NCBI GenBank assembly: GCA_965222615.1
Contig: CBDCUI010000008.1
Location: 640,001-704,000 of the forward strand
Length of the DNA stretch: 64,000 nt
From: Gammaproteobacteria bacterium
GTDB lineage: Bacteria; Pseudomonadota; Gammaproteobacteria; UBA4575
Direction of reading: 5' to 3'
Positions 10,836 through 29,126 of this stretch are shown here, piece after piece. Numbering within the stretch: position 1 is the first letter of the stretch; each line of letters starts with the position of its first letter. The position numbers were made by a program, and so were the translations under genes. The notes beneath the pieces were generated by a model that saw only the letters and a list, made by a program, of their open reading frames with translations, had not been told where the DNA came from and ran no database searches.

Positions 10836-10870
<35 letters not shown>

Positions 10871-10903
10871 TAATTGATGGGGTTAGCTTCGGCGAAGCTC
10901 TTG

Positions 10904-10950
<47 letters not shown>

Positions 10951-11604
10951 TAATATCGGTTGAAGATGTTACATTTTCAAAAAACGCTAGCCTTAGTAAA
11001 ACCGAACTATATGCGGGAAACTCCTCTAAAGCTGTTCAGTACTCGTTGATCTCTGTGATCTTCAGTAAAAATCTGACAGACATGTGGACAATCCGCAGGG
11101 AAGACTTGAATGTACCAAGAACCCTCAGAGACTTTACGTTCGGGAGGTGCCTATGAAACTAGATGCACAATGGATTACAGGTTTTGTGGATGGAGAAGGT
11201 TGTTTTCATGTGGGAATAAATCCTCATAAGGAAATGACTGTAGGATTTCAGGTGTTACCTGAATTTACCGTTGTACAACATAAACGCGATGTGCAAGTAC
11301 TTCATGCTCTGAAAAGTTATTTTGGATGTGGTGTGGTTCGAGTGAACCATGGCGACCGAATGGCCTATCGGGTAAGAAGCATCAAACATTTGTTAGAACA
11401 CATTGTTCCATTTTTCATCAAGCACCCGCTGAAAACGAAAAAGAATGTGGATTTTAGAAAATTCCGAAAAATTCTTTTAAAGATGGAAGCGGGCGATCAT
11501 TTAACATATGAGGGTGTCGAAGCAATTCGAACTATTTCAAGTGAAATGAATCGAGGTACTTCAAGATAAAGTCCGGCTTTTCTGGAAACAGATTAGATTA
11601 ACCG
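10951..11604 (+). mobile_element. Group I intron at 23S position L1931 (E. coli numbering) with homing endonuclease
   Basis: Splits GGTCCTAAGGT|AGCGAAATTCC. P1 CTAAGGT/GCCTTAG with U-G pair; core TCAGAGACT and AAGATAAAGTCC; ends in G. Confidence 0.92.
11153..11569 (+). CDS. Single-motif LAGLIDADG homing endonuclease
   Basis: WITGFVDGEGCF; FTVVQH and FGCG motifs; GGAGGT ribosome-binding site before ATG 11153 (ORF track starts at 11084). Confidence 0.93.
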   Translation: MKLDAQWITGFVDGEGCFHVGINPHKEMTVGFQVLPEFTVVQHKRDVQVLHALKSYFGCGVVRVNHGDRMAYRVRSIKHLLEHIVPFFIKHPLKTKKNVDFRKFRKILLKMEAGDHLTYEGVEAIRTISSEMNRGTSR

Positions 11605-11624
11605 AGCGAAATTCCTTGTCGGGT

Positions 11625-11893
11625 AAGTAAAATTGCCCCTTTTGGGAGCGATCCCAAATCGCAAACCGGCTCAAATCGGTGAAGCCTTCCTGCGTGTGCA
11701 GCGCAAAAGGTAATACCGAGGGTAAGATTATTATTAAATTGATAATCCCTGTAACGACTCAAGGGTGAGATCCTTGGATGGATGAAAATCCATAATACGC
11801 CGGCCCTGTTTATGATTGCGAATGAGGTTTCTCAACTCACGCAAACAGGTGAAGGTATAGTCTGTGCCCTTTGGAAACATTGGGAATAACATG
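11625..11893 (+). mobile_element. ORF-less group I intron at 23S position L1951
   Basis: Splits TGTCGGGT|AAGTTCCGACC. P1 GGGTAA/TTGCCC with U-G pair; core TGTAACGACT and AAGGTATAGTCT; terminal G at 11893; 269 nt. Confidence 0.9.
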
Positions 11894-12182
11894 AAGTTCC
11901 GACCTGCACGAATGGCGTAACGATGGCCACACTGTCTCCACCCGAGACTCAGTGAAATTGAAATCGCTGTGAAGATGCAGTGTTCCCGCGGCTAGACGGA
12001 AAGACCCCGTGAACCTTAACTACAGCTTTACATTGAACTTTGAGCCTGCTTGTGCAGGATAGGTGGGAGGCTTCGAAGCAGTCACGTCAGTGGTTGTGGA
12101 GCCAACCTTGAGATACCACCCTGGCATGTTTGGAGTTCTAACCCAGGCCCGTTATCCGGGTCGGGAACAATGTATGGTGGGT

Positions 12183-12225
<43 letters not shown>

Positions 12226-12346
12226 ACGAAGGTACCCTAAGTACGGTCGGAAATCGTGCGGTTTGTGCAAAGGCATAAGGGTGCTTGACTGCGAGACAGA
12301 CACGTCGAGCAGGTACGAAAGTAGGTCTTAGTGATCCGGTGGTTCT

Positions 12347-12402
<56 letters not shown>

Positions 12403-12431
12403 ACTGCCCAAGAGTCCATATCGACGGCAGT

Positions 12432-12509
<78 letters not shown>

Positions 12510-12671
12510 TGGTACGCGAGCTGGGTTTAGAACGTCGTGAGACAGTTCGGTCCCTATCTACCGTGGGTGTTTGAGACTTGAAGGAAGCTGCTCCTAGTAC
12601 GAGAGGACCGGAGTGGACGTACCTCTGGTGTTCCGGTTGTCACGCCAGTGGCATTGCCGGGTAGCTATGTA

Positions 12672-12711
<40 letters not shown>

Positions 12712-13023
12712 CACCTGAAATGAGGTCTCACTGGGAACTTGATTCCCCTGAAGGGCCCTGGAAGACGACCAGGTTGATAGGCTGGGTGTGGAAGTTCAGT
12801 AATGGATGAAGCTAACCAGTACTAATTGCCCGTGCGACTTGACCATATAACACTCAAGCAAATTGAGTGTGTAGCGAATACTTCAAAACACACGCCTAGT
12901 TGGTTTTCAAAATTTTGTTTAATTTCATATGGGGTCAGACTCGATTGCATCTGGCCTTTGGGTGAGAAGGTGTTTGATTCAGATCAATCGAGTCTGACCC
13001 CATTGAAATTAAACATACCAGTT

Positions 13024-13142
13024 TGCCTGGCGGCAACAGAGCGTTGGTACCACCCGATCCCATCCCGAACTCGGAAGTGAAACGGCGCATCGCCGATGGT
13101 AGTGTGGGGTCTCCCCATGTGAGAGTAGGACACTGCCAGGCA
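13024..13142 (+). rRNA. rrf: 5S rRNA
   Basis: TGCCTGGCGGC...CCATCCCGAACTCGGAAGTGAAAC...GAGAGTAGGACACTGCCAGGCA. Confidence 0.96.
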
Positions 13143-13151
13143 TTAATACCT

Positions 13152-13189
13152 AAAGCCTCGTAATTGATTACGGGGCTTTTTTATTTTTT
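13152..13189 (+). terminator. Rho-independent terminator after 5S (first of three tandem terminators)
   Basis: AAAGCCTCGTAAT-TG-ATTACGGGGCTTT plus T tract; further hairpin/T-tract units at ~13294-13333 and ~13441-13477. Confidence 0.85.
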
Positions 13190-13222
13190 GGAAGTAAATT
13201 TAAGTCGCAGTGTGATTACTGG

Positions 13223-13480
13223 TATGCGAGCCGCATCCGTGCGGCTGACTCTCATTCCTATATCCATGTAGTCACCAGCCAGGCATTAAAATAAATAAGG
13301 CTCTAGAGTTTTACTTTAGAGCCTTATTTTTATTACGAAGATGAAATTTACAGGCAGTGTAATTTACGGGCCGGTTTGCCGAAGTCCATTTCGGCAGGCT
13401 CTCACTCGCACATCCATGCGCACGTGTGGCATTAAAATACAAAGACCCTAAAGTTTTGCTTTAGGGTCTTTTTTATTATG
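13223..13480. repeat. Two degenerate tandem units: CATCC-hairpin element + 5S 3'-end copy + terminator
   Basis: GCCGCATCCGTGCGGC...CCTATATCCATGTAG...GCCAGGCATTAA, then ...GCACATCCATGCGC...GGCATTAA, each followed by a terminator and GAAGATGAA..TTA.AGG.AGTGT. Confidence 0.7.
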
Positions 13481-14004: not shown

Positions 14005-15255
14005 ATGAAGTTTTTTGTAAACTCAACACCAATAGTTGAAGAAGAATTTCGAGTTGGAAAGAAGACTGCAGGGGTCACAGAGCTTCCAAATCAAAATAAA
14101 GCAAAATTTTCAGCAAGCTTTACTAAATCTAAGATAAGAATCAAGACAAGTGCATCTACATCTGTTTTGCCTGAAGTAGTACGAGTTAAAAATGCTTCAT
14201 GGGCATTTAGTACTCGACGGGTGTCAATAGAAGCAGTCCAGTCTGTTTTGCCTCTTGAGGGTTCGCCTAATGCGGGGGATTTGGTTTTAGCACGTGTAGA
14301 CATGATTGGACATCATTCTGGATTGCAACAACCAAATGGAAGGCGTAAATCAATGTTCATTGGCGATGAAATTGTAGTTGCTTATGGTAACCGCTATGCA
14401 TCAAATCAATTTGAATCTTTTGTACCTGAAACACTTGGCCCTTGTCACCTTGTAGCAGGCGGCGGTATCGCATCACGCGCAAGGTCATGGCATAACCGAA
14501 TTTCAAAAGGTCCAACACATATTACGCCATTAGGTTTGTTAGGTGATCGAAATGGTAGGCGTATGAACTTAACCCAATTTGCGTTACAACCACTAAAAAA
14601 CATAAGTGATAAATTTCCAACTGCTATTGCAGTGGTGGGTACTGGAATGGATTCTGGCAAGACACAAAGTGCCGCGTATTTGGTTAAAGGATTAATTGCA
14701 GCTGGTTTGAAAGTGGCCTATGCAAAAATAACAGGAACAGGGGCAGGTGGAGATACTTGGTTGCTTAGAGATGCTGGTGCATTTCCAGTTTTGGATTTTA
14801 CCGATGCTGGTGCTCCTTCAACATATTTAATGACTAAAAAAGAAATTGAAAATATTTTAGTGACCTTAGTAGGGCATATATCTACTAAAAATGTAGACAC
14901 AATCATTTTAGAAATCGCTGATGGCGTATATCAACAAGAAACTGCTGAATTACTTCGCTCAGATATTTTTGATCAAATTGTTGGAGGAGTGCTGTTTGCA
15001 GCAAGAGATTCGATGGGGGCGAGTGCAGGTGTTCATTGGCTAAGTAATTATCCAACCCCTGTGCTCGCGTTAAGCGGTGTGTTATCTGCAGCGCCCTTGC
15101 AAGTTAAAGAGGCAACAGAGGCATTGCGTTTACCCGTATATAACCGTGAAGAGCTGGCTACTGCAAAAATTGCATTTCAGATCATGAATCGTGCGTGGCA
15201 GAAACATCATGAATTAAATTGTGAACCCCGGAAATTATATATAAATGTCGATTAA
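14005..15255 (+). CDS. DUF1611-like P-loop NTPase domain protein
   Basis: AGGGAGG RBS; GDLVLARV, YGNRYA, VVGTGMDSGKT (P-loop), KITGTG, DFTDAG, EIADG motifs. Confidence 0.7.
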   Translation: MKFFVNSTPIVEEEFRVGKKTAGVTELPNQNKAKFSASFTKSKIRIKTSASTSVLPEVVRVKNASWAFSTRRVSIEAVQSVLPLEGSPNAGDLVLARVDMIGHHSGLQQPNGRRKSMFIGDEIVVAYGNRYASNQFESFVPETLGPCHLVAGGGIASRARSWHNRISKGPTHITPLGLLGDRNGRRMNLTQFALQPLKNISDKFPTAIAVVGTGMDSGKTQSAAYLVKGLIAAGLKVAYAKITGTGAGGDTWLLRDAGAFPVLDFTDAGAPSTYLMTKKEIENILVTLVGHISTKNVDTIILEIADGVYQQETAELLRSDIFDQIVGGVLFAARDSMGASAGVHWLSNYPTPVLALSGVLSAAPLQVKEATEALRLPVYNREELATAKIAFQIMNRAWQKHHELNCEPRKLYINVD

Positions 15256-16144
15256 TGGAAACTCTAATGATACTCGATGGATGCTGCCAAAAGGCAAAGT
15301 CCTAAGACGTACTATGCAAGGCGCGCCGAATTTTGACTATCTTATTTACTTACCAACTTCAGTTAAAAATAATGCACCTTTATTAATCGCAGTGCATGGG
15401 CTCTCACGCAATACGCATGAACAAATGCGTGTATTTTCAAAATTGAGTGAGTTATATGGAGTTATTGTAGCCGCTCCAAATTTTTCAGAAGAACAATTTA
15501 AAGACTATCAGCGTCTAGGCCGGATAGGTTTGGGTTTGCGTGCAGATTTATTCTTAAATGAGTGCATAGTGGAAATTGGGCTTTTAACAGGAGCTGAAGT
15601 TTCAAAAATATTTCTATTTGGATTTTCAGGTGGCGCACAATTTGCTCACCGTTATTTAATGGTTCACCCACATCGTGTGGCCCGGGCAGTAGTAGTAGGT
15701 GCAGGTTGGTATACATTTCCAGATGCAAAGTTAAAATTTCCGTATGGCATCCGATCTACAAAAAGGTTACCTGGGGTAATTTTTAATCCTGAAGAATTTT
15801 TGACAATACCTGTATCAGTATTAGCTGGTGAGCACGATACATCTATGACTGCGCTTCGACGAAATATCCGAGTAGATGAGCAACAAGGTAAAAACAGGGT
15901 GCAACGTGCTCGTAATTGGGTAGTCGCAATGCGAGAAGCAGCAAAAATGTTTGGCATGTTGCCGATGGTGACCTTTACAGAAGTGCCTCATATTAACCAT
16001 TCATTTACCCAATTTTATCGGCATGGCGCGTTGACTGAAAGAGTATTTAATTCACTATTCGATATTCCATTTTCTTCACTTAAACAAACAAAGTCAGCAG
16101 TGCAAGAAGGTGATAATGCTATTGCTGAAAATGTGATGAATTGA
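15245..16144 (+). CDS. Alpha/beta hydrolase, cytoplasmic, resembling poly(aspartate) hydrolase PahZ1
   Basis: VHGLSRN, GFSGGAQFAHR (nucleophile elbow), GAGWYT, GEHDT, QGKNRVQRA, and C-terminal His in INHSF. No signal peptide. Confidence 0.75.
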   Translation: MSINGNSNDTRWMLPKGKVLRRTMQGAPNFDYLIYLPTSVKNNAPLLIAVHGLSRNTHEQMRVFSKLSELYGVIVAAPNFSEEQFKDYQRLGRIGLGLRADLFLNECIVEIGLLTGAEVSKIFLFGFSGGAQFAHRYLMVHPHRVARAVVVGAGWYTFPDAKLKFPYGIRSTKRLPGVIFNPEEFLTIPVSVLAGEHDTSMTALRRNIRVDEQQGKNRVQRARNWVVAMREAAKMFGMLPMVTFTEVPHINHSFTQFYRHGALTERVFNSLFDIPFSSLKQTKSAVQEGDNAIAENVMN

Positions 16145-16171
16145 TTTGTTTTAATTTGTAATAACTGTTTT

Positions 16172-17410
16172 ATGACTAAAGCTAATAGCAATCGATCAAA
16201 TAACACTAATTTGACTAATCAAAAAAAATTAGTTGTTAGGCCGGTACATATTGAACGTTCGGCAAAACATGAAAATGCTATTGGTATGGCGCAGTTGCCC
16301 CCGCCAAAATTTACCAATAAAAATTATAGGAACCGAACTTTAAAATGGATGTTGGTTTGTATTCTGCTAATTCTTTTATCAATTCCATTTGTAACATGGC
16401 TTCAATATCAATCAAGCAATATTATTTCACGTAATGCTATTGTGCGTGGAAATCTCGCTGAAATTGGCACCCGTATTAATGGTGTTCTTATGGATATAGA
16501 TGTGCCAGCAGGGGAGAAAGTATGGTCAGGACAGGTTTTGGCAAAACTTGAGCATCAGCATATTAAGGCTGAGGGCGAAGAAGCAAAAGCAGAGTTGGAG
16601 GGTTTTGCTCGCGAATTAGAAGTAGAACAGATGGCGATTGAGCATGAAAAATTATTATTACAAAACAAAATTCAAGAAGCAGGTGCCAACCTAGCTGCAG
16701 CACAAGCTGAAGTTACTGCAGCTAAAACTCGTGCACGAGAAGCCGAAAATTTTTATCAAGCACGCAAAAAACTACTCAGTGAACAGCTAATTTCTCGCGA
16801 AGATGTGCGTGATGCAAATAGTAAACGTAGGACAGCGGCTGCTTTGGTCCGAGTTGCAGAGGCCAATTATTTAGCAGCTAAATCTGCACAAGAGAATGCA
16901 TCATTAGACTCAGATGGTTTGTTAATTCGTAAGCAACGAATCGGTGTATTGGAAGCAAATGTTGCACGTGCGAAGGCTCGTCTGGCAAAAGCTGATGCAG
17001 ATTTACAAGGAACACACATTCGAGCTCCAGGCGATGGCGTGGTCATTAGATGGCTGATACAGCAAGGTGGCTCTGTAGAAGTTGGGAAACCAGTACTATC
17101 CATGTGGGTAGGTGATGAGGTATGGATAGAAGCGTGGATAGATGAAGATGAAATTTCACATATACAAGTTGGTGATATTGCAACGGTCACATTGCAATCG
17201 TTTCCAGGAAAAGAATTTATGGGTGTAGTAGAAAAAATTGGTTTAACCACAGATTTTCAAACGCCTGCACCAGATATTCCTCAACCGCGCTTTACACGTA
17301 TGCGTGGCGCACCTGTAATAGGTGTATTAGTAAGACTAAATGATCCACCTGACAAGTTGCTGCCTGGTTTATCAGCCGTAGTGGCAATACAAAATAGTGT
17401 AGGGGGATAA
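16172..17410 (+). CDS. HlyD/EmrA-family membrane fusion protein
   Basis: N-terminal TM; lipoyl half-motifs V..GEKVWSGQVLA and IRAPGDGVV; long coiled coil; LLPGLS. Confidence 0.9.
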   Translation: MTKANSNRSNNTNLTNQKKLVVRPVHIERSAKHENAIGMAQLPPPKFTNKNYRNRTLKWMLVCILLILLSIPFVTWLQYQSSNIISRNAIVRGNLAEIGTRINGVLMDIDVPAGEKVWSGQVLAKLEHQHIKAEGEEAKAELEGFARELEVEQMAIEHEKLLLQNKIQEAGANLAAAQAEVTAAKTRAREAENFYQARKKLLSEQLISREDVRDANSKRRTAAALVRVAEANYLAAKSAQENASLDSDGLLIRKQRIGVLEANVARAKARLAKADADLQGTHIRAPGDGVVIRWLIQQGGSVEVGKPVLSMWVGDEVWIEAWIDEDEISHIQVGDIATVTLQSFPGKEFMGVVEKIGLTTDFQTPAPDIPQPRFTRMRGAPVIGVLVRLNDPPDKLLPGLSAVVAIQNSVGG

Positions 17411-17413
17411 AAT

Positions 17414-19303
17414 ATGCCAACTAATATAGATAGTTCAGATGCAGTAGTACCAAATCCATTCGAATTAAATTTTTGGGATAAATATATTCGACCAAAGCGA
17501 AATATTCATCCTATAGGAATTGGGTTACTTTCTCTTTTAGCGTTTATACCTCTAATAATGGTATTTTCGCGGCTCTTAGCTTATCCAGGGATGCAGCCGC
17601 AAAATATTTTTGGTTTAGATTGGTTGCACTTATTTGGGACATATTTAAATCAATCAGTTACTTTGCAATGGGTTCCACCAGATGATCAATGGACCATACT
17701 GTACTTGCTCTTATTGCCTCTAAGCGTTCTTATCATAACCATTGCGCGTTTAACTTTTGGGTTACGAATTTTAGGTTTTCGAGCGATTTTGATTGCTGTG
17801 GGATTTCAGGAAATTGGCTTTTTGCCAAGTATTCTATTAATCATATCCGTAATAGCTACTATTATTTTAGTGCGTCCTGTATTGAGGCAAATACGTCTGC
17901 CTTTATATGCGCGCGTTTCGGTGATTTTATGCATTTCTGCGATGTTTATGATTGGCGCATTATTTTTAGGATCATGGTTGCGTTCAGAAATAATTTGGAA
18001 TGTTGCCTTTTTCCCAGTAATTATTTTAGCAATGTTAGCAGAGAGTGTAGCCAGAACAATTGATAGAGAAAGTATACAGACAGGTCTTTGGCGTTTATTT
18101 TGGACAGTAGTTTTAGCAATAATCATTGCTTTAATTTGTAAATTACCCGTTATACGAGAGGCCGCTTTATTTTTCCCTGAATTAATGATTACACAGTTAG
18201 TATTTGTCGTATTTGTTTCAGAGTTTTTTGATTTACGTTTATTACAAGGCTGGCAAGAACGCATTGGGAACAAGAAGAAAAGCAAATTAGTGGCTATACC
18301 TGCTACAGCAAAGATAGCTGTTGTACGAAACCGGTGGAATTCAAATGTACTTGGACGGCTAGGAATTCCAATTTCAAACAAAGCGAGAGTTAAATCAGTT
18401 CAGCGTTTAGTAAATTCATTACGTAATTTAGGCTATTCCGTTCGAGTATTTGAAAGTGATATTTCATTGTTTCGTGAATTACGTAAGTTTATACCTACTG
18501 ATCCGTTAACCGGTCATCCGGGTGGCATGGTGTTAAATTTAGCGAGAGGTGTGCAAGGTGTTGGTAAGCTAAGTCACTTGCCTGCTATGTTAGAAATGTC
18601 AGGAGTTGCTTATACAGGTCCTGATCCAGTTAGCCATACACGAATATTAGATCGTTATATGATGCTTACTTTATTGCGAGAGTCTGATATTCCAGTCCCA
18701 AAGTTTAAATGTATTTCAAGCATATTTTCAGATATAAGTGATCTACGTTTTCCAATAGCAATACGACCACGTTGCGAATCGGATGCAAAATGGAATATTG
18801 TTAGAACTCCCGAAGATTTTACTGCGACAGCAAATGAAGTTTTACAAACTTATAGGCAAGAACTTGTTGTTGAAGAATTTCACTTCAGTCAAGAGATACG
18901 CGCTTCATTAATTGGTAATAATGTAGTCGAATGTTTTCCACTATTACAGCATAGCATGAGGGGAAGCAAAAAAATCTGTCCAGCACCTTTAGACGAAACA
19001 CTTACAAAAAAGATTGAAGAGACTGCTAAACAAGCTTACCGCGCAATTGGATGTCGAGATTATGCTCGAATTGACATCAGAATAAATGAAGAAAATGAAC
19101 CGTGCATTATCCAAATACATACTATAGGTATTTTTGCCCGCAATGGGTCATTTGCTCAATCAGCAAAACAAGCTGGATATTCATTTGAAGATTTAATGCA
19201 TCGAGTTATTCAGTTAGCTTGGTTACGTTATGGCGTGACGTCTAATATCTCATGCATGGATGTGGATGAAAATCAGACCTTATCTGAGGTTGAAGTAGCT
19301 TGA
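17414..19303 (+). CDS. 7TM (transglutaminase-associated type) membrane domain fused to a D-Ala-D-Ala-ligase-like ATP-grasp domain
   Basis: LLLLP...R..FGLRILG, FFPVIILAMLAE, FPEL and DLRL motifs in the TM part; LEMSGVAYTG, KICPAPL and GCRDYARIDIR in the C-terminal part. Confidence 0.75.
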   Translation: MPTNIDSSDAVVPNPFELNFWDKYIRPKRNIHPIGIGLLSLLAFIPLIMVFSRLLAYPGMQPQNIFGLDWLHLFGTYLNQSVTLQWVPPDDQWTILYLLLLPLSVLIITIARLTFGLRILGFRAILIAVGFQEIGFLPSILLIISVIATIILVRPVLRQIRLPLYARVSVILCISAMFMIGALFLGSWLRSEIIWNVAFFPVIILAMLAESVARTIDRESIQTGLWRLFWTVVLAIIIALICKLPVIREAALFFPELMITQLVFVVFVSEFFDLRLLQGWQERIGNKKKSKLVAIPATAKIAVVRNRWNSNVLGRLGIPISNKARVKSVQRLVNSLRNLGYSVRVFESDISLFRELRKFIPTDPLTGHPGGMVLNLARGVQGVGKLSHLPAMLEMSGVAYTGPDPVSHTRILDRYMMLTLLRESDIPVPKFKCISSIFSDISDLRFPIAIRPRCESDAKWNIVRTPEDFTATANEVLQTYRQELVVEEFHFSQEIRASLIGNNVVECFPLLQHSMRGSKKICPAPLDETLTKKIEETAKQAYRAIGCRDYARIDIRINEENEPCIIQIHTIGIFARNGSFAQSAKQAGYSFEDLMHRVIQLAWLRYGVTSNISCMDVDENQTLSEVEVA

Positions 19304-19304
19304 T

Positions 19305-20909
19305 ATGGTTTCTCAGTTTTGGAAGCAGTTAAAGTTCTATATGTCTCAATGCTTGGGATTGCTTTACTTATCGTTAATACTGTTTTGTGGAGGCGAAGAA
19401 AATCTGTATGCAAAAAATGATCAAGATTTGATAATAAATAAAGAAGATATTTCCAAGACTGATTTTTTATCAAAAATTTCAACTGCAAATTTACTAAATG
19501 ATGAAGGAATTCATTCTTCAGGATTTAGTGAATTCAAATTTAAAGCAAGAGATGGCCGAATATTGCGTGTATACGTATATCGTGCAACGAAGTTTGACAG
19601 CGAAAATGGGCCCATATGGTTTGTGATGCATGGTGCGAGCCGTGATGCGCAAGGTTATTTGCAAATTGCAGCGTCAATCGCTGAACGTTATCAGGCTTTA
19701 TCTATTGCAATTGAATTTTCAAAAGAAAATTACCCTAAAGGTGACCAGTATACTTTAGGGGTTACAAAGTATGGACGCGTAAACGAATATGCTTATAAGC
19801 AAGGTCGTTGGCGCAATCCTGAAGAATTTTTGTATATTGAATTAGAGAGAGTGTTTTTGGCATTAATTTCTAAGCTAAACGGACATCAACAAGGCTATTT
19901 TGTTTTTGGGCATAGTGCTGGTGCGCAATTTACCCATCGCTTAATTACATTTAATCGTTATGCAAGTGTTGTTCATGCTGTTGCAGCAAATTCTGGGTGG
20001 TATACCTTGCCATTGTTTGAATTGGGCAAACAATATGCATTGCCTTATGGTTTGCGTGGAAGCCCTCTATCTCAATCAGATGTCAAAGAAATATTTAGTA
20101 AGAATCTTACTATTTTAGTAGGCACAGAGGATACTAAATCGCATCGTGAAGATGCACTTTTGAGGCACACGAGTGAGGCGATGACACAGGGTAAAACGCG
20201 TTATGAACGTGGTTTAAATTATTTCAACATCAGCAAGCGACATGCAACATCCTTGCAATCGGATTTTGTTTGGCGATTAGCTTATGCCCCAGGGGCCGGT
20301 CATAAGGCAAGAGAGGTCATGGCATCGGCTGCATTTCTAATGTTTTCTAAGGGTCAAACAGCTTGTAAGCCTTCGGCTTTTAAAAGTAGTGATTCGTTGC
20401 AGTTTAGTGAAATTCTTATTCATCCTCCACGTGATGATTATGGTGACTCAAATGCTGACGGTGAGCGTAGTGCAATAGAAGATGAATTTATTGAAATAAA
20501 AAATATTGGTGAATTACCAGTATGTTTGACAGGTTGGAAATTGGAGGATGGTCACGGCCGAGGAGGACATTTGTTTCCAATTGGATCTGCACTTAATCCG
20601 GGTGAAATGGTTGTGGTTTTTGGTGGGGGTATTCCAACTGGTAATTTTGGAAATTCTGAAGTTTACACGGCCAGTTCTAGTAGCGGCCTAAATTTAACAA
20701 ATAAAGGTGACAAAATCACACTGAAGGATTTGAATAATACAATTGTGAATCAAGTTTCTTGGGGGAATTGTGCAGGACTACACTGTGCAGATGAACATAT
20801 TGCATTGGATAAAAATTCATTAGGTTCTGTAGTAAATAACAAAAAAGAGAATAGTAATTGGCAAACACATTCGGAAATATCAAATCTACAGTTTTCACCA
20901 GGATTTTGA
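19305..20909 (+). CDS. Exported PahZ1-like alpha/beta hydrolase with C-terminal lamin-tail domain
   Basis: N-terminal hydrophobic segment; VMHGASRD, GHSAGAQFTHR, ANSGWYT, VGTED, QGKTRYERG, GAGH; then FSEIL..P..D.NADG...DEFIEIKN..LTGWKL (LTD). Confidence 0.78.
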   Translation: MVSQFWKQLKFYMSQCLGLLYLSLILFCGGEENLYAKNDQDLIINKEDISKTDFLSKISTANLLNDEGIHSSGFSEFKFKARDGRILRVYVYRATKFDSENGPIWFVMHGASRDAQGYLQIAASIAERYQALSIAIEFSKENYPKGDQYTLGVTKYGRVNEYAYKQGRWRNPEEFLYIELERVFLALISKLNGHQQGYFVFGHSAGAQFTHRLITFNRYASVVHAVAANSGWYTLPLFELGKQYALPYGLRGSPLSQSDVKEIFSKNLTILVGTEDTKSHREDALLRHTSEAMTQGKTRYERGLNYFNISKRHATSLQSDFVWRLAYAPGAGHKAREVMASAAFLMFSKGQTACKPSAFKSSDSLQFSEILIHPPRDDYGDSNADGERSAIEDEFIEIKNIGELPVCLTGWKLEDGHGRGGHLFPIGSALNPGEMVVVFGGGIPTGNFGNSEVYTASSSSGLNLTNKGDKITLKDLNNTIVNQVSWGNCAGLHCADEHIALDKNSLGSVVNNKKENSNWQTHSEISNLQFSPGF

Positions 20910-20972
20910 ATAAAGTGGTCTTAATTTGAGAAAGCCGAGTTATAAATTTAATTAAGGATTTCGTGAAATAAT

Positions 20973-23186
20973 ATGTCATTAGATACATCAATTTCAGGCA
21001 ATGAAAAAATAATTCGCAATCAATCCATGCAACTAATGGGAAGCACTATTTTGTATGGTAGTAATGTATATCATGAAGATACAGTTCTTCTGCAAAAGGT
21101 GCAGATGGGTATTTTACGCGGACAGTCTACCACATTAGCTGGTAAAGAATTCGCGCAGGATTATTTAGATCGCTTTATTAGTAAATTGAATGTTGTGCCG
21201 GCTTATAAATTTAATACTAATTTTCTAAATAAGCTACATTCTTCTGAAGGCGCAACATTTGAGGAAACGTTGTTAGAAAGTATTTTGAATATTGAAGCAG
21301 CAATTGCATATGTTACTCATGATTTTATACCAATTGAATTCACGAAGATTGTCGAGAAGTTTTCTTCTGATGAGGTATCACTAATCTGGGAATCTCATAA
21401 TCCGATTATATCTCGTGAAGCAGCAAAGGTTGCTCTCCATGGTTTGCTTGGTCTCCTGTCTAAAGAGATATGTGCAGGGTTAAGTTTACATAGTGTTAAT
21501 TTCGAACATTCATTCTCCAAATTAAAAGAACGAGCAAAAAAATGGCAAATCTCAACTACTACTTCAGTAATTTTGATGGAGGCAAGGCAAAGAAAAATTC
21601 CATATGAGACATTGGGGGCACCATTATTACGTTTAGGACAGGGTAATAAACAAAAGATGATATATGCATCTATACCTGAAAATACTTCATTTATAGCTGC
21701 TCATCTATGTAGAAATAAACGTAAATCAAATCGATATTTGATGCAACAGGATCTTCCAGTGCCCAAGCAAATTAAAGTAAATACTGTGGAGAAAGCTATA
21801 GAAGCTGCCAAAAGATTGGGTTTCCCTGTAGTTTTAAAGCCGATAAGAGGTAAACAGGCAAATGGTGTGACTGTGGGTTTGAATAGTAGTCAGGAGATAG
21901 CTCGCGCATTTAATCGTGCTCAAACAAGTTCTACTAACGTGATTATGGAAAAATTTGTTCAAGGTGATGTGTATAGACTGCTTGTTATAAACGGCAAATT
22001 TATAGCTGCATTAAAACTTGAACCACCCAGTGTAATTGGTGATGGTAGAAAGTCTATTTCTAAATTAATTGGGGAACTAAATAATGATTCACGTAGAAAT
22101 GATATTTTACTTTATAAAGTAGAAATTGATGATGAATTATTAGAAGTAATTGCTCGTAACAAGTATTCGCTTCATACAATTTTAAAGGAAGGTGAAATTC
22201 TTCGTTTACGTTCTGCGGCAAATGCTGCAATAGGTGGTTTCCATACCGATGTAACTGACATTGTGCATCCTGATAATCAGGAAATGGCAATACGTGCCGC
22301 TAATCTAATGGGGTTATCTGTAGGAGGTGTTGACTTTATCAGCAAAGATATAGGTAGTTCGTATAAAGAAATTGGCGGGAGCATTATAGAGATGAATGCC
22401 CGCCCTGGTTTTTGTATGCATACATATCCGAGATATGGCAAAACACAACCTGTTGCTAAAGCTATGCTTGATATGGTTTTTCCTGGTGGTGACAACGGCC
22501 AAATTCAGAAACTTATAGTAGTAGGATCTCGCCGAACCAATGCCATTGCTCAAAAAACGGAAAAAATAATCCATATGAAAGGCGTTTCAGTAGGTTTATT
22601 AACAAAAAGTAAAATTTGCATAAATAATCATTACGAAAAAATCGGTAAATCTAAAACACGTGTCGCTCTATATAGGTTATTGCGAAATCCAGCTGTAGAA
22701 AGTGTAATCACAACAACTTCACCTAATCGTATTGTTGAGAATGGTTTGCAGCTTTCTCGAGTTAATATAGCAGCGATTCTGAATTCAGAAGACAGTATAG
22801 ATCCTGAAACTTATCAACAGTGTATAGAGGTAATTGCAAAGTCTAAACCAAATACGATTATATTGGATGCAGAAAATCAAGCTGCATTAAAATGTTTGAA
22901 TGAAAAAGAGCATGAAAATATTGTATTAATTGCTATAGATACCAATATTGCAAACGCTGTGCTTAAAAATAATAAGCCCAACTTAATCATTATGAGAGAG
23001 AAAAAAGATATTCATGGGTCGATTGTTATACGAAATCAAGAAAGAATTCTAGGCAAAATACTGTTGAGAGAAATTGATTGTAAGAACATAGAAGAAGTGC
23101 GTCATGTAAAAAACAAAATGTTTTCTATAGCGATGGCATATTCATATGGAATCTCAATTAAGAAAATAAAACAAGCTTTACTATAG
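20973..23186 (+). CDS. Cyanophycin synthetase-like ATP-grasp ligase with degenerate Mur-ligase domain
   Basis: CphA-type N domain (GSNVY), RLGQGNKQK, GFPVVLKP, YRLLVING, VIGDG, DVTDIVHPDN, GVDF, EMNARPG. The Mur P-loop position reads VVGSRRTN instead of TGTNGKTT. Confidence 0.8.
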   Translation: MSLDTSISGNEKIIRNQSMQLMGSTILYGSNVYHEDTVLLQKVQMGILRGQSTTLAGKEFAQDYLDRFISKLNVVPAYKFNTNFLNKLHSSEGATFEETLLESILNIEAAIAYVTHDFIPIEFTKIVEKFSSDEVSLIWESHNPIISREAAKVALHGLLGLLSKEICAGLSLHSVNFEHSFSKLKERAKKWQISTTTSVILMEARQRKIPYETLGAPLLRLGQGNKQKMIYASIPENTSFIAAHLCRNKRKSNRYLMQQDLPVPKQIKVNTVEKAIEAAKRLGFPVVLKPIRGKQANGVTVGLNSSQEIARAFNRAQTSSTNVIMEKFVQGDVYRLLVINGKFIAALKLEPPSVIGDGRKSISKLIGELNNDSRRNDILLYKVEIDDELLEVIARNKYSLHTILKEGEILRLRSAANAAIGGFHTDVTDIVHPDNQEMAIRAANLMGLSVGGVDFISKDIGSSYKEIGGSIIEMNARPGFCMHTYPRYGKTQPVAKAMLDMVFPGGDNGQIQKLIVVGSRRTNAIAQKTEKIIHMKGVSVGLLTKSKICINNHYEKIGKSKTRVALYRLLRNPAVESVITTTSPNRIVENGLQLSRVNIAAILNSEDSIDPETYQQCIEVIAKSKPNTIILDAENQAALKCLNEKEHENIVLIAIDTNIANAVLKNNKPNLIIMREKKDIHGSIVIRNQERILGKILLREIDCKNIEEVRHVKNKMFSIAMAYSYGISIKKIKQALL

Positions 23187-23234: not shown

Positions 23235-23408
23235 TTAGTTCTCTAAGGTGTCAGTAATAATGTGAGAATTCACAATGTCTATGCGTACAGACTAAAGAAT
23301 GACTAACACTTCATTTTGTTCTTGCTGACCAACTTTGTGTTTGTCGCAAGCGGCTAAAGCATCGTCTACGACAGCATTAAATTCCATTTCATTAATGTCT
23401 ATGTCTTT
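23235..23408 (-). pseudogene. 3' fragment of a truncated-hemoglobin paralog
   Basis: Reads [52 protein letters not shown], matching the C-terminus of 33686-34162 with Trp replaced by TAG. Confidence 0.9.
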
Positions 23409-23517
<109 letters not shown>

Positions 23518-23531
23518 GAAAACCAACCGAT

Positions 23532-23580
23532 TTGCCTAGCGGCAACAGAGCGTTGGTACCACCCGATACCATCCCGAACT
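23532..23580 (+). pseudogene. 5S rRNA 5' fragment
   Basis: TGCCTAGCGGCAACAGAGCGTTGGTACCACCCGATACCATCCCGAACT matches 13024-13071. Confidence 0.9.
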
Positions 23581-23960
23581 ATGCGTGCCGCATCCATGCG
23601 GCTGAATTTCATTCCTACATCCAGGTAGTCAGGCTTTTTATTTAGTGTAATTAGAGTAAAAAATTTAACTCAAGTATTATTTACTCCGAAAACACAAACT
23701 ATAAAGTTTGTAAGTAAACATAGGTTTACAAATAAATACGAGAAAGCAAGAAGCTAACATGATCTAACATCACAATTTATGTAATTACAAAACTGAATGA
23801 GGGATGGTGTTATAATTTGATCGAATAAGATCTATTTTTATATAAGATTGATTTTTTTCTATACTGGAAAAATAAATAGCGTAGAATAGAAGAAACGGTT
23901 TTTACAATATGAACACGCTGAGAGGGGAAAGGTTACGATCACTCTAAGCGCCAAAGGAAT

Positions 23961-24602
23961 ATGGCGATAGTCGGGAAATCTATAGGTCTGCTAGCTAGCG
24001 TTTTTGTCGCTGGGATTATTTTTTGGGGCGGATTCAATTGGTCTTTGGAATTAACCAATACAGAGTCGTTCTGCATTTCATGTCATGAGATGCAAGAATA
24101 TGTATATAAAGAATATAAGACGACTAGGCATTATTCCAATAACACAGGGGTAAGGGCTACTTGCCCTGATTGTCATGTGCCTAAAGAGTGGATTCATAAA
24201 GTAGTACGAAAGGTAAGTGCAACTAACGAGCTTTATCATAAGTTACTGGGCACTATCGATACGCCGGAAAAATTCAACAATAGACGTCCAAAGTTGGCAC
24301 AAATTGTGTGGGATAGTATGCGTGCTTCAGATTCCCGCGAATGTCGCAACTGTCATGGGCTTGAATTCATGAACCTTGAAACACAGGCTCTAGCCTCACG
24401 TACTATCCATAAACTCTCAATTGAATGGGGAAAAACCTGCATAGACTGTCACCAGGGCATAGCTCATACGCTGCCTACTGGTTTTAATAATGAAGCAGAA
24501 ATCAGCGATCAGCATGAACGAATAGAAAAACAAAATGTAGACTGTAGCCTTTGTCACGAAGGTCTGACTAAAGTCCCAGCCGACGATGGGTGGGAGGACT
24601 GA
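23961..24602 (+). CDS. napC: NapC/NirT family membrane-anchored multiheme cytochrome c
   Basis: TM anchor, TNTESFCISCHEM, CPDCH, CRNCH, CIDCH, plus a fifth CSLCH. Confidence 0.9.
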   Translation: MAIVGKSIGLLASVFVAGIIFWGGFNWSLELTNTESFCISCHEMQEYVYKEYKTTRHYSNNTGVRATCPDCHVPKEWIHKVVRKVSATNELYHKLLGTIDTPEKFNNRRPKLAQIVWDSMRASDSRECRNCHGLEFMNLETQALASRTIHKLSIEWGKTCIDCHQGIAHTLPTGFNNEAEISDQHERIEKQNVDCSLCHEGLTKVPADDGWED

Positions 24603-24655
24603 TTTGTAATGAGTTAATTCGGTTTATAGGACAGAAAAAACTGTATGCATATTGG

Positions 24656-24669
24656 TTGATTTATATCAA
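24656..24669. promoter_or_regulatory. FNR/CRP-family (FNR/DNR/NnrR) binding site
   Basis: TTGAT-TTAT-ATCAA, a perfect TTGAT-N4-ATCAA, upstream of the cytochrome c-molybdoenzyme operon. Confidence 0.7.
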
Positions 24670-25096
24670 CATGAATAATGGATAATTACCACATAATTTT
24701 TAGATAAGTCTATTAAGAATGGATTGCTATAAACTTGACTACGTTGATTTATCTATATGGTTTGTTATTTGCATTATGGATAATGGTAGTGTTGCTAAGG
24801 ATGAGTGTGCATAGAACACTAATCAAATTGCTCAATATGAGAATATAGATAGGGGGGTAAAAGTATTTATCAATGTTTCTGAGTTGTGAAGGGGAGACAA
24901 GCGCATTTACAGTGCTCATTACTGTCAAAAATCCTTCCAAAATTGCGCCCATATAACATGATACTTTCTAAAATTACATCTAGGCACAAATAGATCGATA
25001 CTGATATTCAACCTAAAAAATAATACTTTGTACTTGCAAAATATGAATGTAATTAGAAACGTAACACATTAGTTTTACTTCAACTTGGAGAATAGT

Positions 25097-25753
25097 ATGG
25101 TTAGTTATCAACACACTACAATTTGGTTTATTGCTCTAGTCATGCTTGTGGTTGGTTATTTTAATGTTGCTGCAGCTGCCGATGAGGCGACTATTAAAGA
25201 AGGTGAGCTACTTTACAATCAAAACTGTGGAGTTTGTCACCAAGCTGATGCAATTGGTAAGCCTGGATTTGCACCATCACTAACCAATAAAGAATTGCTA
25301 AGTGTTGCTTCGGACAAATTTTTCGAGAGTACTATTCGCGACGGACGTCCAGGTACTGGTATGCCACCGTTTGCACATTTGGGTCGTTCTAAAGTAAAAG
25401 CCATTGTTGTGTATCTACGTTCCCATAGCAAATTACCTGAACGTTCAGCGGAAGTAGATGCACAGCCAGATGCGCATGGAGATCCGCGCTTAGGTAAGCA
25501 ATGGTATGACAATATTTGTTCGACTTGTCATGGCGTGAACGGCGATGGTTATGCAGCCGGTGCCACTGGCACAGCAATTGGCACAGAAGGTTTTTTATCC
25601 AAAGTTTCTGATGGATTCATCCGTACCACAATCAAAGAAGGTCGCTCCAATACTCGAATGCTGGGATTTTCGGGAGCAAATGGTTTGGCCAATCTAACCG
25701 ATCAAGAAATCGACGACATTATTGTATATCTACGCACCTTAGCGAAAAACTAA
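25097..25753 (+). CDS. Periplasmic diheme class I cytochrome c
   Basis: Signal peptide; CGVCH and CSTCH, each followed by a distal Met (GMPPF, RMLGF); GGAG RBS before ATG 25097. Confidence 0.88.
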   Translation: MVSYQHTTIWFIALVMLVVGYFNVAAAADEATIKEGELLYNQNCGVCHQADAIGKPGFAPSLTNKELLSVASDKFFESTIRDGRPGTGMPPFAHLGRSKVKAIVVYLRSHSKLPERSAEVDAQPDAHGDPRLGKQWYDNICSTCHGVNGDGYAAGATGTAIGTEGFLSKVSDGFIRTTIKEGRSNTRMLGFSGANGLANLTDQEIDDIIVYLRTLAKN

Positions 25754-25766
25754 TGAGAGTTTAACT

Positions 25767-28496
25767 ATGAAACGTTATAAGCATACTTTTACACGACGCG
25801 AATTTTTAAAAAACAGTGCATTCATTACTGGAGCGTCAGCCAGTGCCGGTTTATTTGTCGGACAAAATCCTGAACTGGAAGCTGCTGAGCCTAGTGAGCA
25901 AGCATCTGCGAGTCGAACGACGGCTTTAGCTCAATGCCCTTATTGCGGTGTTGGTTGCGGCACCATTATACAAGTGGAAAACGGCAAGATTGTGTCTATG
26001 CGTCCGGACAAAGACCATCCTACGAACTACGGTTTGCAATGTATAAAAGGTTTAACCGCTGCCGAACCACTTTATGTCGATCGTATGGAAGGCGATTCTT
26101 ATGTACGCAAAGATGTTTGGGAAGAATGGAGCAAGCCTGGTCATGGCGATTTAGAATTTATCACCAAAAGTAAGGGTTCGTTTGACGAGGAACATTTTGT
26201 CCGTGTGCCATATCATGAGGCTTCGGAAATGGTGGCACACAAAATTGCCCATCTAGTGAAAAAATATGGTGGCAATTCTATTGCCCTGTATGGATCTGGT
26301 CAGCTCACCATGGAAGGTCAATATCTGGAAAACTTGTTCATGAAAGGTGTGCTGGGTTCTAACACCATTGAAGCCAATGCCCGTATGTGCATGACATCAG
26401 CAGTCACTGGATATTTTAAAACCCTTGGATCCGATACACCGCCATTAGCTTATGAAGATATTGAGTTGTGCGACATGATTATGCATTTTGGACACAATGC
26501 GCGCGAAGCTCACCCAATTGTTTTCTGGCGTGCTGCAGATCATAAAAAGAAAACAAACATTCCCACAGTAGTAGTCGATCCACGTCGTACTGGTACCGTG
26601 ATGGGCTACGAAGATATCAATCCCGATAACAGCGTACATGTCCCAGTTCTAAATGGTGATATTAGTTTTCTAAACTCAATTGCACATGTGTTACTGAAAG
26701 AACATGACGATGTGATTGATTGGGAATTCATTAAGGGTAATGCCACTGGCTGGGAAGAATATACACAAGGTGTGCTTAATGATTACAGTCCTGAACAGGT
26801 TCAGGATCGTATGGGCGGACCAAATCATGATGTTTCACCGGAATTAATAAGAAGAGTTGCTGCGATGTTTGCCGATGCTACACGCAAACGTCTCACACGT
26901 AGTAAAGGCAAGCAAGAACCAGACAAAGTCGGTGTCCCTGGAGGAGGAGGCTATGGTGGCGTCATCATCATGTGGGGCATCGGTTATAACCAACATATAC
27001 ATGGCCAGAATAATGTCATTTCCATTATCAATTTATTGGCCTTGACGGGTAATTTGGCCAAGCCAGGTTGTGGACCGTTTTCTATGACTGGCCAGCCCAA
27101 TGCCATGGGCGAGCGATTTACTGGCGGTTTGACTGGGAGATTACCGTTTAACATGCCATTGAAGGACGACAAGCATCGTGCACATATGGCGAAACACTGG
27201 CGTGTACCGGAGGAAAACTTAACTAATGCCATGAACTCTCAAAATCCGGGTATGGCTGTGGGCATGATGGAACGTGCATTGAGAGATGAAGTAAAAGCCA
27301 TGTTTATGGTCTACGCGACACATATAGATTTACCGGATGTTGAAAATCTAGTTCGTCCCGCGATGTCCAAGACCTTTAATGTGGTGCAGGAAATCTACCG
27401 CCACGCACCTAATAATTTATATGCAGATGTGATCTTTCCTGCCGCCACTTGGGGTGAAGTTTCTGGAATTTACATCAGTTCTGAGCGACGTCTCAACATT
27501 TGTGATCAGGCCGCGATGCCACCGAAAGGTTGTTTGCCGGATCTCGACATGGTGGTGGATAAAGGCAAGGAGATCGCTGATCTTTTAGGTATGGACGGTG
27601 AGGCAATCTTTCCTTGGAAGAAAGGCGAAAATGGATTTATCGATACCGAAGAAGTATTTCGTGATGTGATCCGTGCCTCCGCAGGCACCGATACCGACCT
27701 CACTGGAATTTTGGAAAGAGAAAAGATCGATGACATCTCTCCCTATGAGCAGATTCGGCAGTTGCGTGGTATTCAATGGCCCGCACCAACTTATGAGATT
27801 GCCAAATCCGGCGGTACCCACCGACGCTTCATGTTACAAGAGGGACAGTGGAAGAATAGGCCTTATGGTTATTTTCGTACTAAAGACGGTAAGGTTCACA
27901 TACAGTTATGCAAACAGGACTACAGTAATCGCAAAGAACTGACCGCCAAACTAATGGAATTCGGCCATAAGGAAGGTCTATATACCATCGATCATATTGC
28001 CTTATTGGAAGAAGCTCGCGATAAAGCGATCACACCCGATTTACCTGATGAAGAATTTCGAGGTAAAAATTGGCAGGAAGTTCCGGAAGATAAGTTTCCT
28101 TACTGGTTCGGTTTAGGTGTAGTGTACGAACATTTTCATACTGCCAAGTCAAACCGCAGTCCGACCACGCGACGGCTAGTACCGGAGATGTATGTAGAGA
28201 TGCATCCCGAAGATGCTAGTGATCTGGGTATAAAAGACGGTGACAAGGTACGAGTTATCACCCGACGCGGCTCATTGGAAGCGCGAGCTCAAGTAGGTAC
28301 TGATAGCTTAGTTAAGCCGTCTCGTAACGGCGTGCCGCGTGGCTATATGTTTGGTCCATGGAATCTGTCCGTGGCAGACAGTGCCGTACCAGAAAAAAAT
28401 AAGTGGCTAGCCAATCGAGTCACCAGTCGTGTGTGGGATCCAGTATCAGGTCAAGTCGATTTTAAAAAGTCGGCGGCCCGCATTGTGAAGTTGTAG
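25767..28496 (+). CDS. napA: Tat-exported molybdopterin oxidoreductase of the NapA/NasA nitrate reductase family
   Basis: TRREFLK Tat motif; CPYCGVGC...C [4Fe-4S]; YGSGQL; EANARMCM (Cys Mo ligand); FSMTGQPNAMG; DPVSGQ.DFK. Confidence 0.75.
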   Translation: MKRYKHTFTRREFLKNSAFITGASASAGLFVGQNPELEAAEPSEQASASRTTALAQCPYCGVGCGTIIQVENGKIVSMRPDKDHPTNYGLQCIKGLTAAEPLYVDRMEGDSYVRKDVWEEWSKPGHGDLEFITKSKGSFDEEHFVRVPYHEASEMVAHKIAHLVKKYGGNSIALYGSGQLTMEGQYLENLFMKGVLGSNTIEANARMCMTSAVTGYFKTLGSDTPPLAYEDIELCDMIMHFGHNAREAHPIVFWRAADHKKKTNIPTVVVDPRRTGTVMGYEDINPDNSVHVPVLNGDISFLNSIAHVLLKEHDDVIDWEFIKGNATGWEEYTQGVLNDYSPEQVQDRMGGPNHDVSPELIRRVAAMFADATRKRLTRSKGKQEPDKVGVPGGGGYGGVIIMWGIGYNQHIHGQNNVISIINLLALTGNLAKPGCGPFSMTGQPNAMGERFTGGLTGRLPFNMPLKDDKHRAHMAKHWRVPEENLTNAMNSQNPGMAVGMMERALRDEVKAMFMVYATHIDLPDVENLVRPAMSKTFNVVQEIYRHAPNNLYADVIFPAATWGEVSGIYISSERRLNICDQAAMPPKGCLPDLDMVVDKGKEIADLLGMDGEAIFPWKKGENGFIDTEEVFRDVIRASAGTDTDLTGILEREKIDDISPYEQIRQLRGIQWPAPTYEIAKSGGTHRRFMLQEGQWKNRPYGYFRTKDGKVHIQLCKQDYSNRKELTAKLMEFGHKEGLYTIDHIALLEEARDKAITPDLPDEEFRGKNWQEVPEDKFPYWFGLGVVYEHFHTAKSNRSPTTRRLVPEMYVEMHPEDASDLGIKDGDKVRVITRRGSLEARAQVGTDSLVKPSRNGVPRGYMFGPWNLSVADSAVPEKNKWLANRVTSRVWDPVSGQVDFKKSAARIVKL

Positions 28497-28537
28497 GTAA
28501 ACACTAGGACAAGCAAGAAGCTGTCCGCAAAGATACC

Positions 28538-29116: not shown

Positions 29117-29126
29117 GTGTTGTACG

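Follow-up and report, generated by a model that had tools for sequence, protein, structure and literature searches.

Proteins with the PF14402 seven-transmembrane (7TM) domain are said to have been predicted alongside peptide-synthesis systems by Iyer et al. in 2009. In the RloABC system of Pseudomonas aeruginosa, mutations in the PF14402 protein or in the ATP-grasp protein rescue the loss of secreted peptidases that cleave poly-Glu (PMC11957051). Other known systems close to the locus include the PahZ1 hydrolases of Sphingomonas KT-1 (6ve6) and Pedobacter KP-2 (9o7u), the cyanophycin enzymes CphA1 (7lgm, 7lgn, 7wac) and CphA2 (7ta5, 8fxh) and the CapBCA system. The PahZ1 literature consulted here deals solely with thermally synthesized polyaspartate (PMC13017698). 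The locus described below lies in a 64,000-nucleotide stretch of DNA (the window; contig CBDCUI010000008.1, positions 640,001 to 704,000) from a gammaproteobacterium of the lineage UBA4575. Six co-oriented genes, here called A to F, had been predicted from this stretch to synthesize, export and turn over an Asp-rich polyamide. Analysis of the window confirmed the six same-strand open reading frames (ORFs; Table 1), and upheld the identification of C as an HlyD adaptor, of D as a 7TM protein that carries an ATP-grasp domain and of E as the carrier of a lamin-tail domain.

The cassette works most like RloABC, but it falls outside the Rlo, CphA1, CphA2 and Cap systems. As in RloABC, a PF14402 7TM protein and an ATP-grasp domain share an operon with a secreted hydrolase for a polyanionic peptide. 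In contrast to RloABC, its D protein lacks the inactive transglutaminase domain (NF052267 35.2 vs 900 bits, the transmembrane part only), its ATP-grasp is Ddl-like, fused and dead rather than a RimK-like RloC, its hydrolases are PahZ1 serine enzymes rather than a retropepsin RloA, and the HlyD adaptor C and the P-loop gene A are additions. The window's genome separately carries an rloA-rloB-rloC-like operon, which includes a deacylase-like gene, and also a rimB-rimK operon (L189:4497-9039, L191:4515-6937, G000 C9). The likeness to CapBCA is one of concept, a membrane-coupled anionic polyamide, together with CapA domains that recur near related loci; the cassette has neither a CapB-type active Mur ligase nor CapC similarity, and CapA was not found in the genome.

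An alignment of A was used to scan metagenomes, and the best 80 of 109 loci, which were retained and form 55 clusters at 85% identity, demonstrated that these genes travel together. Where only loci with a complete gene and sufficient flank were counted, the order of the window was seen for A and B in 45 of 48 loci, for B and C in 31 of 37, for C and D in 28 of 28 and for D and E in 21 of 23. F followed E in just 4 of 13 countable loci, and L109 also has F in line with a flank too short to count. The co-occurrence that the original prediction called for is therefore present, in a fixed order, in many other genomes, but the conserved unit is the five genes A-B-C-D-E rather than six, and F is optional. 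A is the constant core of the cassette. Of 119 close homologs, 21 are fusions of A with B; named sources of close A homologs are Nitrosomonas, Thiobacillus and Woeseiaceae, and the L001 locus belongs to a Methylococcaceae genome. Among relatives of the window's organism the cassette is rare. A was matched in 8 of 61 related genomes, the window's own included, with none of genes B-F seen around it in the other seven, and a phylum sample gave matches in 3 of 401 genomes, again counting the window's own. This rarity, combined with a low GC content at third codon positions (0.24-0.27 in A-F vs 0.29-0.41 in six other window genes), suggests that the cassette was acquired and is patchily spread. A family-level search around genome G456 returned no genome besides G456 itself, and a close D was found in 0 of 60 relatives of G457, where the matches had E values of 1e-33 or weaker. 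Downstream of five of the five-gene loci (L094, L095, L099, L133, L143), a gene for a reprolysin-like metallopeptidase runs on the opposite strand. CapA is also present in three of these loci, and a degenerate CphA-like gene, which is of another type, in two. The searched literature, whose reach mostly stops short of subscription journals, yielded no description of the cassette or of a natural poly-Asp synthase. The cassette is real, conserved and uncharacterized.

The hydrolases give the clearest link to known chemistry. The best Protein Data Bank match of both B and E is PahZ1 9o7u (E 4.8e-24 and 1.2e-36, respectively), and 3d0k, a putative polyhydroxybutyrate (PHB) depolymerase, is also a close match of both. 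Against the PHB depolymerase model NF050058 (cut-off 150 bits) B scores 39.6 and E 20.4 bits, so that by sequence B and E are PahZ1-like and not PHB depolymerases, as had been predicted. In KP-2 PahZ1 the triad S126/D194/H249 and Arg R215 are required for activity (PMC13017698), and B and E share both the triad and this substrate-positioning Arg. Among 54 B-like sequences the Ser is present in all 54, the Asp in 50 (Glu in the other four) and the His in 51, while Ser, Asp, Arg and His are each present in 21 of 21 E-like sequences. Hydrophobic leaders occur in E homologs and in no B homologs, which agrees with the proposed placement of one hydrolase in the cytoplasm and of the other outside. 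The lamin-tail domain of E is C-terminal (aa 379-487) and is absent in some homologs. Unlike PahZ1, which was characterized on thermally made polymer, B and E form a cytoplasmic and exported pair within an export operon, and they can be fused to A (B) or to the lamin-tail domain (E).

Gene A, the constant component, had been left without a role in the original prediction. Its motifs include a Walker A sequence GTGMDSGKT, a second lysine (Lys241) and EIADG. Walker A, Lys241, the T-G-T-G loop, D250, D264, D267 and E303-D306 are at least 85% conserved in 148 diverse homologs, as are Arg71, Arg113 and Arg130 of the N-domain; the family comprises 1698 clusters at 50% identity. The predicted structure (predicted local distance difference test score 77) contains a SIMIBI P-loop domain whose best fold match is TM0796 (2g0t; Z 16.6, root-mean-square deviation (rmsd) 3.3 over 177 residues), which we take to be a DUF1611 family member. 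Dethiobiotin synthetases (BioD) are tied with this top row (Z 15.4-15.9), followed by the DUF1611 protein Ava_3511 (2obn; Z 14.8) and by DgcN (7xrj; Z 14.5, rmsd 3.4 over 178 residues), an N-acetyltransferase by its Protein Data Bank title. These matches span about 180 residues, mostly aa 198-404, barely cover the beta-rich N-domain and show 12-18% identity. The proposed DUF1611 likeness thus stands for the fold and for relatives of A, among which 4 of 32 scanned matched PF07755 weakly, 1 above the cut-off, but A itself has no PF07755 match, and sequence searches of A against the Protein Data Bank gave none. BioD, CobQ/CbiA and CTP synthase, which belong to the same class, use ATP to activate substrates for C-N bond formation. 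Distant relatives of A occur in other settings. A homolog of 26% identity (L086:8592-9932, genome G059) lies within argR, argG, the A-like gene, probable argC, argD, argF', argB and argH; neither ArgA nor ArgE was seen in this arginine operon, and a role as non-orthologous N-acetylglutamate synthase or transacetylase is possible for the homolog. A recurring trio (L082:7420-10222, L083, L084, L085, L188) consists of a gene of about 200 aa, an M20 carboxypeptidase/deacylase and a distant A homolog, and another distant relative belongs to a phosphonate-peptide-like cluster that also contains ATP-grasp ligases.

D has seven predicted transmembrane segments, and PF14402 was found in all 20 aligned members. 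Fold searches with the 7TM model did not rise above background (best Z 7.4; no Foldseek match at E 0.001). A CapC-like identity of this domain was considered and rejected, with an hhalign probability of 0.7% against 16 proteobacterial PF14102 repeats. The fused ATP-grasp domain is degenerate. As judged by eye in 26 fused homologs, which include the identical sequences of L001 and L120, the complete metal-binding E-x-N is present in none, each ATP-binding lysine is kept in two, the Gly-rich loop is lost, and the pocket residues R552/D554 are kept at 90% or more. Among free-standing relatives of this domain, likewise compared by eye, 68 of 70 rows still have the lysines as well as E/D-x-N, and the other two rows are truncated. 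Loss of E-x-N in the fused form, retention of the pocket and intact free-standing relatives indicate that D is a fusion in which a ligase has turned into a probable binding domain. C is followed by D in every countable locus, and no ATP-binding cassette (ABC), major facilitator superfamily (MFS) or resistance-nodulation-division (RND) transporter gene lies within the cassette. D is thus the likely partner of adaptor C, in keeping with the predicted pairing and in contrast to EmrAB-type exporters, in which such an adaptor is paired with an MFS, ABC or RND gene. TolC lies directly upstream in 5 of 80 loci, and the TolC homolog of the window's genome is unlinked to the cassette. A prediction of the C-D complex scored 0.01 and was used as evidence in neither direction. 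Separately, L003, L004 and L005 have a free-standing intact Ddl-like ATP-grasp beside a separate 7TM gene. In the two of these that were scanned (L003, L005) the gene before the 7TM gene encodes a gamma-glutamyltranspeptidase, the L003 operon (L003:4157-8757) also has a radical SAM enzyme, and many archaeal and bacterial relatives of this ATP-grasp type are fused to an M20 peptidase. These operons look like another uncharacterized isopeptide system.

F is nearest to proteobacterial CphA1, to which its score is closer than to CphA2, but lies below the family cut-offs (NCBIfam 436.6 vs 877); its status as a clade was judged from identities and shared substitutions. It has the N-G-M domain layout of CphA1, and it resembles CphA2 in its dead N site and truncated, inactive M domain. 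The Mur P-loop is missing, as had been noted before (GSRRT in place of GTNGKT), the M-lid is missing too, and the protein ends at about residue 714 of the 929 in 7lgm. The N-domain peptidase motif Cx19HxxEH, found in 83% of CphA1 (PMC9262961), is lost. K289, E326, R335, N417, D454, E473 and N475 (ATP/Mg and acyl-phosphate residues) are kept in the five full-length F types, with one K-to-R change in L096, and F may therefore be an active ligase. In TeCphA1, E215, H267, R323, S396 and R458 bind cyanophycin and incoming Asp, the two carboxyls of which are held by R323 and R458 (PMC9427784). Each of the five full-length F types has replaced all five residues (H244, Q295, L349, A419 and C481 in the window's F), which are kept in 9 of 9 CphA1 rows. 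CphA2 requires an acidic residue (D212) and S395 for beta-Asp-Arg (bioRxiv 2023.04.15.537035), and the equivalents appear to be replaced in F (H244, A419), as mapped indirectly via CphA1 numbering. F has lost its entire G-domain in L112 and L109, and the lid and E-x-N in L107. Among the matches listed, 2 of 119 other proteins were of F type; the N-domain of F as a query recovered F alone even though homologs exist in the loci, and is uninformative.

Other candidate ligases recur around the cassette. Of 43 loci with at least 1.5 kb of upstream flank, 14 have an intact YheC/D ATP-grasp upstream, including all three loci with a G-domain-damaged F (L112, L109, L107). It often comes with a DUF2156 aminoacyltransferase, which is present in 7 of 80 loci. 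L096, which has a full G-domain F, has DUF2156 and no YheC/D within 6.5 kb upstream; the upstream sequence of L148 is too short to judge. Drawn from few loci, this pattern suggests that F and YheC/D with DUF2156 are interchangeable accessory ligases. In the window's genome, which is 99.8% complete, YheC/D matches are just weak and fall in RimK/GshB-like genes, and DUF2156, CapA (PF09587), cyanophycinase and a second CphA were not found. The noted absence of a cyanophycinase beside the locus thus extends, as far as searched, to the genome, and the view that this is not a cyanophycin storage locus is supported. The original prediction had F, with intact ATP-grasp motifs, build the Asp backbone. 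Its ATP/Mg residues are indeed intact, but its CphA1 substrate residues are replaced and the ATP-grasp of D is degenerate. Since F is absent in 9 of 13 loci, has lost the Asp-binding residues and has a damaged ligase domain in three loci, and since E-x-N is incomplete in 26 of 26 D proteins, neither F nor D is supported as backbone builder and the polymerase assignment was probably wrong. A dipeptide-derived polymer is likewise unlikely: beta-Asp-Arg would have to come from CphA1 or CphB, and neither turned up in the genome. This also sets F apart from CphA2, for which CphA1 plus a cyanophycinase is the source of the dipeptide.

Evidence for the nature of the substrate came from a sister cassette, (B)-A-ABC transporter, found in plasmid and genome loci. 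A six-frame scan for ORFs with at least 10 Asp in 24 residues flagged 4 of 97 A loci, all of the sister type, vs 1 of 72 other loci. In new data, A was matched in 23 of 301 genomes of the family of genome G216, each of a different genus. Twenty of the 22 new matches (341 kb; G750 and G629 omitted) were compared with 20 control regions (398 kb) from 13 genomes, 12 of them among the tested ones. Poly-Asp ORFs occurred in 7 of 20 sister-cassette regions vs 0 of 20 controls (Fisher one-sided p ~0.004, a value overstated because the genomes are kin), and four of the seven encode S8 peptidase homologs whose tract is close to the N-terminus. In 15 of the 20 regions an ABC transporter lies within 5 kb of A, B is present in 8 and an Asp-hydroxylase-like gene in 4. 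These results tie the A family to aspartate chains independently of PahZ1 similarity, by way of relatives about 40% identical to the window's A, and lend separate support to the predicted Asp-rich substrate. The secreted S8 peptidase homolog at L080:5009-6643 (minus strand) has more than 30 consecutive Asp after its leader and adjoins an extracytoplasmic function sigma/anti-sigma pair, A and an ABC transporter; L089, L091, L232, L237, L250, L251 and L253 are similar. A cluster on a Microvirga ossetica plasmid (L211:11634-29738) contains two DUF2156 genes, several PahZ1-like hydrolases, a CphA-like~CapA fusion, a tetratricopeptide-repeat protein, an ABC/HlyD pair and an A fused to a transposase-like tail, and L234 and L236 repeat the arrangement of PahZ1-like hydrolase, DUF2156, A, ABC and CphA-like~CapA. 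Thr-rich ORFs upstream in L106, L111 and L115 were considered as out-of-frame poly-Asp and were not flagged by the scan. A 169-aa His/Asp-rich protein with 14 Asp in 24 residues is encoded about 235 kb from the cassette (G000:C8:419357-419866).

Gene content and order, localization signals, intact hydrolase sites, the dead ligase domain of D and the altered, optional F are established, and from this point we infer the enzymatic steps and the direction of transport. We tentatively favor, with somewhat less than even confidence, a cassette that makes or matures, length-controls and exports an Asp-rich anionic polyamide or oligopeptide. A would use ATP to activate Asp carboxyls as acyl-phosphates, leading to beta-amide links either by ligation or by rearrangement of alpha-linked poly-Asp, and B, often fused to A, would trim or edit the chains in the cytoplasm. 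The dead ATP-grasp of D may bind the polyanion at the cytoplasmic face, from which the 7TM domain would pass it to adaptor C and a TolC-type channel, and exported E would trim the chain outside. The G-domain of F, or elsewhere YheC/D ATP-grasp with DUF2156, could act as an accessory ligase, priming the chain or decorating it with a group that is neither free Asp nor free Arg. In its most far-reaching form, this proposal makes the A family a new kind of ATP-dependent aspartyl ligase/isomerase that forms beta-poly-Asp in cells from free Asp or ribosomally encoded tracts, and PF14402 a new inner-membrane exporter working with an HlyD adaptor; we regard that pairing of claims as doubtful.

Several observations weigh against an export cassette for an Asp-rich chain. 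Of the countable loci, 3 of 48 are without B and 2 of 23 without E, and several complete loci (L099, L106, L129 and L131, for example) have no recognizable ligase nearby. Other PahZ1-like genes occur in polysaccharide or peptide-uptake contexts, so the fold alone does not set the substrate. The closest characterized DUF1611 protein, DgcN, is titled an N-acetyltransferase rather than a ligase, and acetyl transfer would suit the distant A relatives found within an arginine operon and next to M20 deacylases. The scan flagged no poly-Asp ORF in any of the 80 metagenome loci, many of them short, all complete five-gene loci included, and the poly-Asp link comes from the roughly 40% identical relatives described above. 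The direction of export follows solely from the class of the adaptor.

A salvage or detoxification function is unlikely but is the strongest competing explanation. E would cut poly-Asp/isoAsp from the environment or of the cell's own making (Asp-rich proteins that have aged, biomineral peptides), B would complete the hydrolysis of imported fragments, A would be a DgcN-like N-acetyltransferase returning D-Asp or blocked ends to metabolism, and C and D would export a dead-end by-product. Both intact enzymes of known type are hydrolases, DgcN is among the fold neighbors of A, and the DgcN-DgcA pathway turns D-Glu into L-Glu (PMC10845958). The deacylase and arginine contexts of distant A relatives point the same way, A-B-porin-ABC loci (porin O/P in 5 of 80) resemble uptake systems, and secreted S8 peptidases with poly-Asp tracts would yield such fragments. 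However, EmrA/HlyD adaptors and TolC indicate export, A retains the full NTP-binding motif set across its diverse homologs, and salvage leaves unexplained both the kept pseudo-ligase domains and the recurring ligases (YheC/D, DUF2156, F and the CphA-like~CapA fusions).

It is improbable that the G-domain of F builds an Arg-free backbone by polymerizing Asp (or a beta-Asp dipeptide), with D and C exporting this backbone and B and E trimming it. F is the sole intact-looking ligase of the cassette in the window's genome, its ATP/Mg and acyl-phosphate residues are kept, and loss of E215 is compatible with a primer without Arg. Against this stand the replacement of R323, R458, H267 and S396 in every full-length type, the presence of F after E in a minority of countable loci, the deleted or crippled G-domains and the failure to find CphA1 or CphB in the genome as a dipeptide source. 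Improbable too is an anionic, non-Asp polymer (gamma-Glu, malate, other polyester/polyamide) as the native target of the PahZ1 fold. This explanation draws on PGA_cap (CapA) after E in 3 of 80 loci, on CapA fused to CphA-like proteins in L088, L234 and L236, on a published PahZ1~CapA fusion (PMC13017698), on the gamma-glutamyltranspeptidase beside intact D relatives and on the closeness of 3d0k to B and E. The poly-Asp tracts and Asp-hydroxylase-like genes that accompany the A family argue for Asp instead, PHB depolymerase models score far below cut-off, the 7TM domain lacks CapC similarity and PGA_cap was not found in the window's genome. That a small peptide metabolite is made or tailored, with hydrolases stripping a carrier or protecting group, is very improbable: EmrA-type adaptors mostly serve small molecules and one distant A relative lies in the phosphonate-peptide-like cluster, but two endo-type polymer hydrolases flanking the membrane, CphA polymer-binding domains and the poly-Asp association suit a chain better.

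In the cassette and its sister form, PahZ1-type enzymes have as neighbors the uncharacterized NTPase family A, secreted proteins with poly-Asp and an unusual 7TM/HlyD pair. This setting may show the natural job of enzymes known so far just for degrading synthetic polyaspartate. The natural PahZ1 substrate, the chemistry of the DUF1611-like family A and PF14402 as a transporter are all testable with few purified proteins. If the A family does form beta-poly-Asp and PF14402 does export it, a natural substrate for PahZ1 and a natural beta-poly-Asp pathway would be defined. A biological source of beta-poly-Asp would also hold interest for biodegradable antiscalants.

Within the window the genes are tightly packed: A and B overlap by 11 nt, and the gaps are 27 nt (B-C), 3 nt (C-D), 1 nt (D-E) and 63 nt (E-F).

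Table 1 Features of the cassette and its flanks in the 64-kb window (TM, transmembrane).
Feature	Coordinates	Strand	Length	Description	Details
gene A	14005-15255	+	416 aa	SIMIBI-class P-loop NTPase	BioD/DUF1611-like C-domain aa ~200-405, beta-rich N-domain
gene B	15245-16144	+	299 aa	PahZ1-like serine hydrolase, cytoplasmic	triad S128/D198/H252, Arg R218, without signal peptide
gene C	16172-17410	+	412 aa	EmrA/HlyD-type periplasmic adaptor	one TM helix aa 59-77
gene D	17414-19303	+	629 aa	PF14402 7TM domain fused to degenerate Ddl-like ATP-grasp	7TM aa ~34-278, ATP-grasp aa ~299-608
gene E	19305-20909	+	534 aa	exported PahZ1-like serine hydrolase	S204/D276/H333, R299
gene F	20973-23186	+	737 aa	derived CphA1-like protein, N-G-M layout	optional in cassette
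5S rRNA and terminator-like hairpins	13026-13471	+		end of upstream rRNA operon	5S = 13026-13141
terminator-like hairpins after 5S	13152-13179 and 13441-13471				followed by AT-rich spacer
partial copy of upstream rRNA operon end	23409-23631	+			downstream of cassette

A promoter scan gave 19 matches, below the shuffled mean of 38. The partial rRNA-end copy downstream of F consists of a 23S piece 98% identical to 12396-12508 followed by 5S-like and post-5S pieces, and is possibly an insertion scar or an assembly artefact; just before it, 23248-23398 is 77% similar to 33699-33849. Further downstream, 23961-30167 encodes a NapC/NirT cytochrome, a diheme cytochrome c, a molybdopterin oxidoreductase of 909 aa and proteins resembling ferredoxin, probably a periplasmic nitrate-reductase-type cluster with no link to the cassette. 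The 23S rRNA upstream (8606-12846) contains both an intervening sequence, which holds an IVP gene (9794-10165), and a group I intron that encodes a LAGLIDADG endonuclease (11084-11569).

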